Positions 16,170 to 26,410 of a stretch of DNA of 64,000 nucleotides are shown one piece after another. The translations under genes and the position numbers were made by a program. Source of the DNA: a phage; sequence record PZ179880.1. One strand, written 5' to 3'. Numbering within the stretch: position 1 is the first letter of the stretch; every line of letters begins with the position of its first letter. The notes beneath the pieces were generated by a model, which was not told where the DNA came from, did not search any database, and saw only the letters and a list, made by a program, of their open reading frames with translations.

Positions 16170-16670
16170 TTATCTCATTTCAATAAAATCTACGAGTTCA
16201 GCATGTGATTTGCGGAACATTACTTGGTGCCCGCCAATGATAACTTCATCTTCAGGAACTTCATATACAGCGAGATAAAATCCTTTAGAAGATAATTCTT
16301 CGCGTTCTTCTCGCGTGAACCATCTCATCATATCATATTCGCTAGCGAAAGCAAAATGATAAAGAGCTATAAACCATCCTGGAATATGATATTCTACTCC
16401 AACATAATCTTTCTTGAACTTAGTATTAATTACTATATTAGCGTTTTTAACTAATAGTTTATCTTCGTGTGGTAAAGGAATTCTTTTATTATTATCGCTA
16501 TGATGCATAAAATTAGGTCTATCATAACCTACGTGTAATAACCACTCTTCGCTCCATGAATCTATTATACTCCTGTATGGTGTTATTTGAACACAAAGAT
16601 TTCGACGCATTGTTATAGCATCTTCATAATCAAGAATGCTAAACGATGATTCAACACGATAAATTTTCAT
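16170..16670 (-). CDS. Hypothetical protein (166 aa from MKIYRVESSF...)
   Basis: Track ORF trimmed to ATG at 16670, downstream of promoter at 16698-16726. Confidence 0.5.
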   Translation of the reverse strand: MKIYRVESSFSILDYEDAITMRRNLCVQITPYRSIIDSWSEEWLLHVGYDRPNFMHHSDNNKRIPLPHEDKLLVKNANIVINTKFKKDYVGVEYHIPGWFIALYHFAFASEYDMMRWFTREEREELSSKGFYLAVYEVPEDEVIIGGHQVMFRKSHAELVDFIEMR

Positions 16671-16733: not shown

Positions 16734-17417
16734 TTATCGTTTTGTTGGAAGAGATAGAGGATCGCACTCTTCCTCTGACGGAGCATCTTCAAGACCCATA
16801 GCATATCGCAAAGCATACTTCATCATCAGGATGTCTTTCGCACAGTCATGAATAGAATCATGTGCAACGAATCCATCCAAAGTTCCCTTTGGAAGAGGAC
16901 ACGTGGTCATATCACGAACAAGCAGAAGTGCTTCAATTCTGGTACGAATATCACGCTGATTCCAGAATTTACAAGGTTCTAACTTAAATGTGTCAAGCTC
17001 ATTCTCGGAAACGCCGTTAAGACGTTGAATATCGCGAATGAGATCAACTAAAATTGGAAAATCAAACGACATTCCACGGCACCAGCCCTGAGATTTCCAA
17101 GGATCGATATTATGCGCATTGATGTAATCATTAAATTTTGCAATACCATCGATAGTGCTTACATCTTCATTTGATGGTGCAATATTTTTTCGAGCTTCAG
17201 GAGACTGATTTTTCCACCATTCGATAGTGCTTTTAGTAAAAAGACGATGTCCTTTTTGGCTTTTTAAATCAAATTTGATTTTAATGCCGCGTGAAACTAA
17301 TTCATCAAATGTTTCAACTACTTCTGGATTAGGGTCAAAGGCAATAACAGCCAAATCAATAACAGCTGCCTTTTCACCGCTTCCCATTGTTTCAAAATCT
17401 ATAATAAAATCAAACAT
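16734..17417 (-). CDS. dexA: Exonuclease A DexA (DEDDh 3'-5' exonuclease)
   Basis: 227 aa from MFDFIIDFETMG... (exo motif I), matching T4 DexA (memory). Confidence 0.9.
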   Translation of the reverse strand: MFDFIIDFETMGSGEKAAVIDLAVIAFDPNPEVVETFDELVSRGIKIKFDLKSQKGHRLFTKSTIEWWKNQSPEARKNIAPSNEDVSTIDGIAKFNDYINAHNIDPWKSQGWCRGMSFDFPILVDLIRDIQRLNGVSENELDTFKLEPCKFWNQRDIRTRIEALLLVRDMTTCPLPKGTLDGFVAHDSIHDCAKDILMMKYALRYAMGLEDAPSEEECDPLSLPTKR

Positions 17418-23561: not shown

Positions 23562-23728
23562 TCAGTGTATCGCATTTCAGCATTGAACTCGACTGAACCA
23601 TCTGCATGCATCATGAATGAATGCGTGACGATATCACAATCCCAGCTTTTCATACCCCATTTATCAGAGATAGCTTTATCAAGAACCTTCTGGAGGTCTT
23701 CATTTGGTTTAATCCAGCGATTTAACAT
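23516..23728 (-). CDS. Hypothetical protein (70 aa)
   Basis: GGAGAG SD; downstream of promoter at 23755-23783. Confidence 0.45.
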   Translation of the reverse strand: MLNRWIKPNEDLQKVLDKAISDKWGMKSWDCDIVTHSFMMHADGSVEFNAEMRYTDWGGFQRVEFQRGFL

Positions 23729-23754
23729 AGTGCTCTCCTCTATAAGATAATTTT

Positions 23755-23783
23755 ATTATACCATACTCATTTTGGAAAGTAAA
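23755..23783 (-). promoter_or_regulatory. T4-type early promoter (-35 TTTACT, -10 TATAAT, TGn)
   Basis: Minus-strand GTTTACT..N17..TGGTATAAT. Confidence 0.65.
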
Positions 23784-23793
23784 CCGGTAAAAT

Positions 23794-23819
23794 GAAAAAA
23801 GGACTCCCGAAGGAGTCCT
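23794..23819 (-). terminator. Rho-independent terminator after soc
   Basis: Stem aggactcc/ggagtcct, loop cgaa, then U-run on minus transcript. Confidence 0.7.
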
Positions 23820-23824
23820 TGAAT

Positions 23825-24070
23825 TTATTCACCAGTTACTTTCCACAAATCTTCGTTTGCAGTAATCCATTCAGTACGTTGATTTTCTTCATATACTGTA
23901 GAATATGCTGCTTTTTCTGAAGGGAATATCTGATAATGAGCGCCAGAAATTTTGTGAACGTCAGAATAAAGAGGGAAAGCTACAGAAATTTCCTTTCCTT
24001 CAATTTTCTTATTTCCATCTAATTTTTGCTCAAATGTTTTAATATTAACATAACCGCGAGTACTAGCCAT
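23825..24070 (-). CDS. soc: Small outer capsid protein Soc
   Basis: 81 aa MASTRGYVNIKTFEQKLDGNKKIEGKEISVAFPLY... matches T4 Soc (memory). Confidence 0.95.
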   Translation of the reverse strand: MASTRGYVNIKTFEQKLDGNKKIEGKEISVAFPLYSDVHKISGAHYQIFPSEKAAYSTVYEENQRTEWITANEDLWKVTGE

Positions 24071-24099
24071 GTAATTCTCCTTTATTTAAATTACATGAC

Positions 24100-24107
24100 T
24101 ATTTATA
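24100..24107 (-). promoter_or_regulatory. T4 late promoter (TATAAATA) for soc
   Basis: Minus-strand TATAAATA about 30 nt upstream of soc ATG; GGAG SD. Confidence 0.6.
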
Positions 24108-24291
24108 ATAAATTCTTGTGGAACGTTAAAATACCCAATTTTAGTTAATATAACAACATCACCGTTAATAATTACCGGAGAATAATCGGCTGGAGCATTA
24201 AACTTCCAATGAGCTCTAATATTATATCCATCAGAACCAAATGCTCAACTAGCCGGTCTCCCGGCTTTTTGCCATGCATAAAAATCAAATT

Positions 24292-24492
24292 TCATTTTGA
24301 ATGCTCTATAATTAATTTTAAGGCTTCTTCATGCACCTTACCTAATTGTATATGTCCAGTTTTAATTGTGTAAGCTTTGTGGAGCTGATTAGATAGGAGC
24401 TCGTATGTGAGCTCCTTGTCATAATTTTTAAATAGCTGGTCAATACGTTTCTTGTGGGCTTTCTTAAGTTGACGTTTATTTAAACGAGCCAT
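24292..24492 (-). CDS. Hypothetical basic protein (66 aa)
   Basis: TAATG-coupled to gene 56 stop. Confidence 0.45.
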   Translation of the reverse strand: MARLNKRQLKKAHKKRIDQLFKNYDKELTYELLSNQLHKAYTIKTGHIQLGKVHEEALKLIIEHSK

Positions 24493-25007
24493 TAATAACC
24501 TCGGTCTTGACGAGCGAAGTTTTCAGCATTTTTCAGATAATAAAGTTTAAAGATTTCTTCAGCCGTAAGACCGAGACCTTGGAACATGTTCAGAACGAAA
24601 TGAAGAATATCAATCATTTCGAATTTAATTTCCAACTGGTCTTGTGGAGACAAATCAGTAATCAGAGTTTCACGTCGTTCACCATGTTGAGCTTTCCAAG
24701 GCTTCCATACAGCAGATGCATCTTTTTCACCATTGCTCATACCACCAAGAGAAGTCAATAGTTCGCGGAATTCATCATCAATATAATCTTTCTGATTACG
24801 CAGCCAATCAACAACTTCACCCGCAGTAGCCAAATCATCAGGATGACGGTTATATTCAGGTTTATCTTTAGCTAAACGAACCTGTAGAGATTTCTGCATA
24901 TCAAGCATAACCTGCAGCGGGTCTTTTTCATCACCGAGAATATCCCAGTATTCATTTTGAGCTTTATCAGCGCCTTCGATCAGTTGACTACATTCGTTAA
25001 AGTAAGC
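24492..25007 (-). CDS. 56: dCTP pyrophosphatase gp56 (MazG-like)
   Basis: 171 aa from MAYFNECSQLIEGADKAQNEYWD...; matches T4 gp56 (memory). Confidence 0.9.
   Translation of the reverse strand, partial: AYFNECSQLIEGADKAQNEYWDILGDEKDPLQVMLDMQKSLQVRLAKDKPEYNRHPDDLATAGEVVDWLRNQKDYIDDEFRELLTSLGGMSNGEKDASAVWKPWKAQHGERRETLITDLSPQDQLEIKFEMIDILHFVLNMFQGLGLTAEEIFKLYYLKNAENFARQDRGY

Positions 25008-25070: not shown

Positions 25071-26410
<1,340 letters not shown>

Follow-up and report, generated by a model that had tools for sequence, protein, structure and literature searches.

The interval at 24086-24295 of the 64-kb window (the whole phage stretch analysed, 64,000 nucleotides long) lies in a stretch (24071-24295) where a first-pass annotation saw no convincing ORF, and is identified here, by homology of its sequence, as soc.1, a T2-type accessory gene with one premature stop. 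Near its 5' end lies a GC-rich hairpin whose pairing covaries among T-even phages. We put at about 0.85 the probability of the combined reading, i.e., that the interval is a nonsense-inactivated soc.1 and that the GC-rich stem within it is seemingly selected, most likely acting in the sense transcript.

The soc.1 locus

The minus strand carries every large ORF near 24071-24295. The features referred to below are as follows:

23825-24070, minus strand: soc, an 81-aa ORF corresponding to Soc
24064-24101, minus strand: a stem-loop of 14 bp in which the soc AUG is paired and which flanks the soc Shine-Dalgarno sequence; the 5' arm starts within the late promoter and the 3' end of soc.1
24086-24295, minus strand: the soc.1 frame, 69 codons plus TAA with a single in-frame stop (from translation, PF24197, PHROG 5773 and the ime09 alignment)
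24100-24107, minus strand: the soc late promoter TATAAATA, inside soc.1 codons 63-66
24245-24247, minus strand: the premature opal TGA at codon 17, which is CGA (Arg) in intact alleles
24251-24266, no strand assigned: a hairpin with a perfect 6-bp stem and a 4-nt loop (AGCCGG-GAGA-CCGGCU on the sense strand, AGCCGG-UCUC-CCGGCU on the plus strand)
24267-24270, plus strand: a TTTT run, the complement of the Gln-Lys codons CAA AAA
24292-24492, minus strand: soc.2, 66 aa (from the ORF list and PHROG 5782; annotated in ime09 and T2)
24492-25010/25025, minus strand: gene 56 (dCTPase)
25071-25850, minus strand: dam

The program-made ORF list has no ORF longer than 40 aa in 24071-24295, and ORF finders report nothing in 24086-24295 because the TGA interrupts soc.1. 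The minus-strand frame that opens with the ATG at 24295 translates as MKFDFYAWQKAGRPAS, a stop, AFGSDGYNIRAHWKFNAPADYSPVIINGDVVILTKIGYFNVPQEFIINSHVI and a final stop, that is, 69 codons with one internal TGA at codon 17. When this codon is restored to Arg, the product matches the Pfam family PF24197 (DUF7422) with 155.9 bits (cutoff 27) and an E-value of 2.9e-46, residues 1-69 aligning with profile positions 1-69 of 69, and it also matches PHROG 5773. It shares 67 of 69 residues (97% identity, codon 17 counted as different) with the annotated Soc.1 of ime09.

The genomic setting is that of soc.1 as well. Megablast with 23700-24600 retrieved 557 phage records, almost all of them Escherichia, Shigella or Yersinia T-even phages. 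The homologous stretch of ime09 is annotated as soc, soc.1, soc.2 and gp56, and the T2 record AF374619 has the order 56, soc.2, soc.1, late promoter, soc; the place and orientation of the frame in the window agree with those of the annotated soc.1 in ime09, T2 and CC31. As a member of the family should, the DUF7422 match shares its strand with soc, which it immediately precedes, and comes after 56 or soc.2, whereas the uninterrupted frame of a functional member is broken by the TGA. Compared with soc.1 of T2 and ime09, the window gene has the same place between soc.2 and soc, the same strand, the same length, the same ATGA overlap with soc.2 and the same embedding of the soc late promoter in its 3' end, but has TGA instead of CGA at codon 17, and no full-length product is expected from it. 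The overlap is formed by the soc.1 ATG (24295-24293) and the soc.2 TGA stop, and soc.2 and soc.1 may be translationally coupled through it.

Several statements of the first-pass annotation change with this identification. It had placed the interval between soc and gene 56, while the upstream neighbour is in fact soc.2, gene 56 starting only beyond it. It had also said that a conserved ORF in relatives would speak against its reading, and an intact soc.1 is present in about 150 records besides T2 and ime09. Its suggestion of a segF-less remnant is half right: segF is missing and a T2-type soc.2-soc.1 pair sits where it would be, but a pair of genes is no remnant. The T4 record has the order soc, segF, 56, and according to PMC5931544, which cites Belle et al. 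2002, the place held by segF in T4 is filled in T2 by soc.1 and soc.2. The window likewise has soc.2-soc.1 in the slot downstream of gene 56 that the homing endonuclease gene segF occupies in T4.

In other phages soc.1 is, to judge from its substitution pattern, a real protein under purifying selection (pairwise dN/dS 0.07-0.45, with dS saturated between genera). A search of 5.8 billion proteins showed the Soc.1 family to be small, with 11 clusters, all DUF7422, and confined to T-even-like enterobacterial phages (Tequatrovirus, Mosigvirus, Karamvirus, COW86c-like and Moon-like); in the relatives checked, soc.1 always lies just upstream of soc. A PDB profile search with Soc.1 returned nothing below an E-value of 0.5, i.e., no solved relative, and the AlphaFold2 model from a 6-sequence alignment is of low confidence (pLDDT 62.6). 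Database labels such as "head protein" and "small outer capsid protein soc.1" look like name propagation. A protein of 121 aa in PG7-type Karamvirus has Soc.1 as its N-terminal half and an extra, helical-looking part at the C-terminus, and one 121-aa database protein (P0007) has Soc.1 at its C-terminus; the domain is evidently modular. Broken versions other than the TGA allele also occur: the 2001 T2 record AF374619 has a 40-aa "ORF soc.1" with a 1-nt gap relative to recent T2 genomes, and further cases are the UNVERIFIED ERS-1 genome and three database proteins with frameshifts. Sequencing errors may explain some of these, and genuine decay others.

The soc late promoter is where the first-pass annotation put it, on the minus strand at 24100-24107, and is also annotated at the equivalent place in AF374619. 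It is the sole copy of TATAAATA on either strand of the 64-kb window, with 11.4 expected; the motif is strongly avoided in this early region. The stem-loop at 24064-24101 folds with -14.8 kcal/mol (z -3.8), and none of 200 shuffles was as stable. Macdonald, Kutter and Mosig reportedly described in 1984 that the stem keeps soc from being translated from early read-through transcripts, while late transcripts start inside the stem. As it embeds the late promoter and the 5' arm of the stem-loop masking the soc ribosome-binding site, the 3' DNA of soc.1 has roles beyond coding. Downstream of soc, at 23750-23820, there is a strong two-way hairpin, AAGGACUCC-UUCG-GGAGUCCUU, with U6 on the gene strand, directly followed by an early-promoter-like TTTACT-17-TATAAT with an upstream TG. 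This arrangement resembles the promoter/stem-loop modules (PeSLs) that Comeau et al. are said to have described for T4-like phages in 2014.

The proposal that the interval may be a replication origin, as a non-coding counterpart of T4 oriA, draws on a review that places oriA "near soc" in T4 (PMC3016281), and it fails on location. The T4 record has oriA at 16763, a position that falls within gene 56, at its 5' end, and is about 1.2 kb away from soc; its equivalent in the window is about 24990, some 700 bp upstream of 24086-24295 and outside it. The interval is moreover coding in relatives, and no iterons or repeat structure were seen in it, so we regard an origin here as extremely improbable.

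The opal allele at codon 17

The altered base is the A at 24247 on the plus strand, and a single C-to-T transition accounts for the change of CGA to TGA. Its distribution was examined by megablast with two allele-specific 55-mers (T and C versions), in which each 28-base seed spans the variable base. TGA was found in 23 phage records, or about 20 genomes after RefSeq/GenBank duplicates are dropped, and CGA in 148. Phages with the TGA allele include ZN18, a51, 107, DCP2, ES19/21, ECO07P4/5, the CHD/G3 series, HP3 and YUEEL01/TOPO13, and they represent several hosts and countries. Relative to the window soc.1, the other TGA alleles have 1-4 substitutions and no indels, and the metagenome contig L076 is identical to it except for one synonymous site and the C at codon 17. 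The soc.1 of YUEEL01 is a recombinant, with a window-like 5' half including the TGA and an ime09-like 3' half, and the allele has therefore circulated long enough to have recombined.

The simplest reading is that of a young loss-of-function allele, which the intact state of the remaining 52 codons fits. A C-to-T transition in this phage lineage would have turned Arg17 into an opal stop, and ribosomes coupled from soc.2 would start at the ATGA and stop after 16 codons. Inspection of the sequence found no in-frame ATG, GTG or TTG downstream of the TGA.

We rejected decoding of the TGA as selenocysteine or by suppression. None of the 11 tRNAs in the cluster of phage 107, which has the TGA allele, carries the anticodon TCA, the 64-kb window has no tRNA genes, and no significant fold that could act as a stimulatory structure was found 3' of the UGA (z -1.78), the GC-rich hairpin being 5' of it.

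Soc.1 might still be made at a low level by leaky reading of the opal codon, with Trp at position 17, in which case the gene would be tuned down and not dead. Among the stop codons of E. coli, UGA is the most leaky, and residue 17 varies across the family (R, K or P). The spread of the allele over some 20 genomes from several countries and hosts, and its having outlived recombination in YUEEL01 without a second lesion, would also suit such a gene. The TGA alleles diverge too little, however, for secondary lesions to be expected, and the tRNA and folding results just given count against leaky decoding as well, which makes it an unlikely explanation beside a young null allele.

The nonsense allele has left its mark on annotation. 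In GenBank records of phages with the TGA allele, the stretch is either left empty or filled by a 35-38-aa ORF called in another frame. In a51 an out-of-frame ORF over the soc.1 pseudogene (a51_141, 1073-1180 of the retrieved stretch) is a "hypothetical protein", and in phage 107 one in the same place (Phage107_028, 1073-1189 of the retrieved stretch) is a "putative transmembrane protein". Such calls across soc.1 are very likely spurious.

Two further observations concern the bases at and beside the stop. On the minus strand at 24221-24248, the same C-to-T change turns TCGAGC into TTGAGC, 16 nt upstream of a perfect TATAAT, and the resulting sigma-70-like site scores 10/12 and is directed towards soc; it may mean nothing, as promoter-like sites are common here (66 found, 47 expected). 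In HP3, HP3.1 and HP3.2 the codon before the stop is TTT (Phe), where it is AGT (Ser) elsewhere, i.e., two adjacent base changes beside the TGA. HP3 (NC_041919.1) is a 168-kb T4-like phage, and "Rosemountvirus" in its RefSeq taxonomy line looks misassigned.

A covarying stem-loop in codons 10-15

The hairpin noticed in the first-pass annotation, AGCCGG-TCTC-CCGGCT, is present with a perfect 6-bp stem, but lies at 24251-24266 and not at 24253-24272. The TTTTT said to follow it is a run of only four T, the fifth T belonging to the stem as its last base. Read on the sense strand, the hairpin is A-GCC-GGG-AGA-CCG-GCU, from the third base of Lys10 through Ala11, Gly12, Arg13 and Pro14 to Ala15, and thus encodes Lys-Ala-Gly-Arg-Pro-Ala, codons 10-15 of soc.1. 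Four of the six stem pairs are dictated by the peptide (Ala GCN, Gly GGN, Pro CCN), and the remaining two join synonymous third positions, Ala11 with Pro14 (the inner variable pair) and Lys10 with Ala15 (the outer). Perfect 6-bp GC-rich hairpins are frequent over the window as a whole, with 35 found and 3.7 expected from Markov simulations, and many of them have CGAA/UUCG loops.

We compared 28 distinct full-length soc.1 sequences with 23 distinct 5' ends, drawn from a background of 243 matching GenBank records. The following types occur:

Tequatrovirus (main) and Mosigvirus: AAA GCC GGG AGA CCG GCT; outer pair A-T, inner variable pair C-G
fPS-65/GiZh group and PG7 group: AAA GCT GGG AGA CCA GCT; outer A-T, inner variable T-A
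CC31/RZH group: AAG GCC GGN CGN CCG GCC; outer G-C, inner variable C-G
COW86c/P0004: AAG GCT GGG AGA CCA GCC; outer G-C, inner variable T-A
P0005: AAA GCT GGA CGA CCA GCA; outer A·A (pair lost), inner variable T-A
Moon (peptide NKDGRPT): no hairpin

Both third-position pairs thus covary across Tequatro-, Mosig- and Karamvirus-type phages, in all four combinations. Among the 23 distinct sequences, 97.1% of stem cells are paired, the variable pairs being AU in 15 and GC in 6 at one place and CG in 12 and UA in 10 at the other; 16 cells changed on both sides and none on one side only. The covariation score was reached in none of 500 shuffles, slid controls collapse, and RNAalifold predicts this helix alone. 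The four combinations are intermingled on an NJ tree from which the hairpin codons were left out, and parsimony requires at least 4-5 compensated double changes. An Rfam 15 scan gave no match at the hairpin at E-values up to 1 and two chance-level hits overall. Compensatory changes of the kind expected in a conserved cis-acting RNA are present, in an element without a counterpart among the curated families there. The hairpin is probably a selected stem-loop, a conclusion drawn from comparison of two pairs and few events in recombining phages.

It may be argued that the hairpin has no function and is a by-product of the A-G-R-P-A peptide, joined by chance or linked inheritance at two third positions. 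This reading gains from the codon pattern GCN GGN ... CCN GCN, which by itself imposes four of the six pairs, from the loss of the outer pair in the P0005 lineage and from the absence of a hairpin in the Moon type, whose peptide differs; T-even phages also recombine, and their haplotypes are not independent. The covarying pairs are nested, however, and recombination alone therefore cannot give all four combinations. Both pairs are kept in 21 of the 23 sequences despite saturated dS between genera, and the hairpin codons are not frozen, as their synonymous sites differ between genera as often as those in the rest of the gene. With the codon usage of the window, the chance of both pairs being Watson-Crick is 0.148 per independent draw, and the G-C pairs are made with codons that are rare in the window (GCC, 7%; GGG, 7%; CCG, 15%). 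Unrelated genes encoding WQKAGxPA, found in pattern scans of IMG/VR (57 matches, mostly such genes, hence a rough control) and of metagenomes (2 matches), do not keep the pairing. A hairpin without function thus appears doubtful, and a selected stem-loop is the reading followed below.

A proposed sense RNA element and comparison with known hairpins

The first-pass annotation took the hairpin and its T run as a possible terminator of plus-strand transcripts, and an intrinsic terminator of antisense RNA against soc.1, soc.2 and gene 56 has some points in its favour. A perfect GC-rich stem is followed by four T, the plus-strand fold has -14.5 kcal/mol (z -3.8), a plus-strand sigma-70-like site is present upstream, at 23722-23751, and the hairpin is one of only four terminator-like hairpins on the plus strand of the 64-kb window, which is more than chance (0.16 expected from Markov simulations). 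On the whole this reading is poorly supported. The stem itself is suitable; a U tract of about five or more is usual, and four T follow the stem here. The hairpin is absent from a terminator scan of the window. The run is accounted for by CAA AAA, the preferred Gln-Lys codons, and is not conserved with the stem in relatives: it is degraded to TTCTG or TTTCTG in the CC31, PG7, COW86c and P0005 types, although these retain the stem (P0005 without its outer pair). When the outer pair switches from A-T to G-C, this by itself shortens the run. Nor does the 64-kb window contain any plus-strand copy of the late-promoter consensus TATAAATA.

A further hint comes from intermediates of the inner pair. 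The wobble variant GCT...CCG occurs in ECO78 (Tequatrovirus) and PNJ-6 (Mosigvirus), and would be a tolerated U·G in the sense strand but a C·A mismatch in the antisense strand, while the reciprocal GCC...CCA was not found in 30-mer searches, which need near-exact matches and give lower bounds for variant counts. The resulting 2 versus 0, statistically non-significant, points to an RNA element of the sense strand over an antisense terminator. No wobble or mismatch intermediates at the outer pair or in a TAC-flank background were found in the same searches. With these results together, termination of antisense transcripts seems quite unlikely.

The stem would then most likely act in the sense (early/middle) transcript, where it has neither a U tract nor a recognised motif. 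As a guess, it could hinder decay of the transcript or direct its processing downstream of gene 56 and soc.2. Visual inspection of the conserved 5' part of soc.1 revealed no MotA-type middle promoter. The GAUUU found 20 nt upstream of the hairpin fits the RNase E-type motif RAUUW, but is dictated by Asp-Phe codons and was given no weight.

Two hairpins offer themselves for comparison. In T4, a 6-bp GC-rich tetraloop hairpin, GACGCC-GAAA-GGCGUC, is located at T4 16218-16233, about 40-55 nt past the end of gene 56 and just inside segF, within its first 20 codons. Its sequence is unrelated, and it is terminator-like with UUUU on the sense strand, in contrast to the soc.1 hairpin with its T run on the antisense strand only; presumably it is the "56/segF" terminator mentioned in PMC5931544. 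By analogy, a structure shortly downstream of gene 56 may be a recurring need. The soc terminator at 23799-23820 resembles the soc.1 hairpin in being a short, GC-rich, perfect stem with a tetraloop, but differs from it in lying between genes, in its 9 pairs and UUCG loop, and in having U6 on the gene strand; the soc.1 hairpin, of 6 pairs, is followed by four T on the opposite strand alone and sits within coding sequence. We tentatively suggest, at somewhat less than even odds, that the stem in codons 10-15 is an undescribed cis-acting RNA element of at least three T-even genera, acting in the sense transcript downstream of the essential dCTPase gene 56 (e.g., as a 3' decay barrier or processing signal) and paralleling the segF hairpin of T4 at the same distance.

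The inactivated soc.1 is an ordinary recent pseudogene of a known accessory gene, and the TGA allele shows that soc.1 is dispensable in nature. The main value of the finding lies in annotation, as about 20 deposited genomes show the soc.1 nonsense allele as an empty stretch or a spurious ORF. The covarying intragenic stem-loop is the point of real interest, a modest one: it is a small, clean example of probable selection on nucleic-acid structure inside phage coding sequence. It also provides a handle on the processing or stability of transcripts downstream of gene 56 in T2-type phages, for which the well-studied T4 sequence, with segF in this place, gives no guide.
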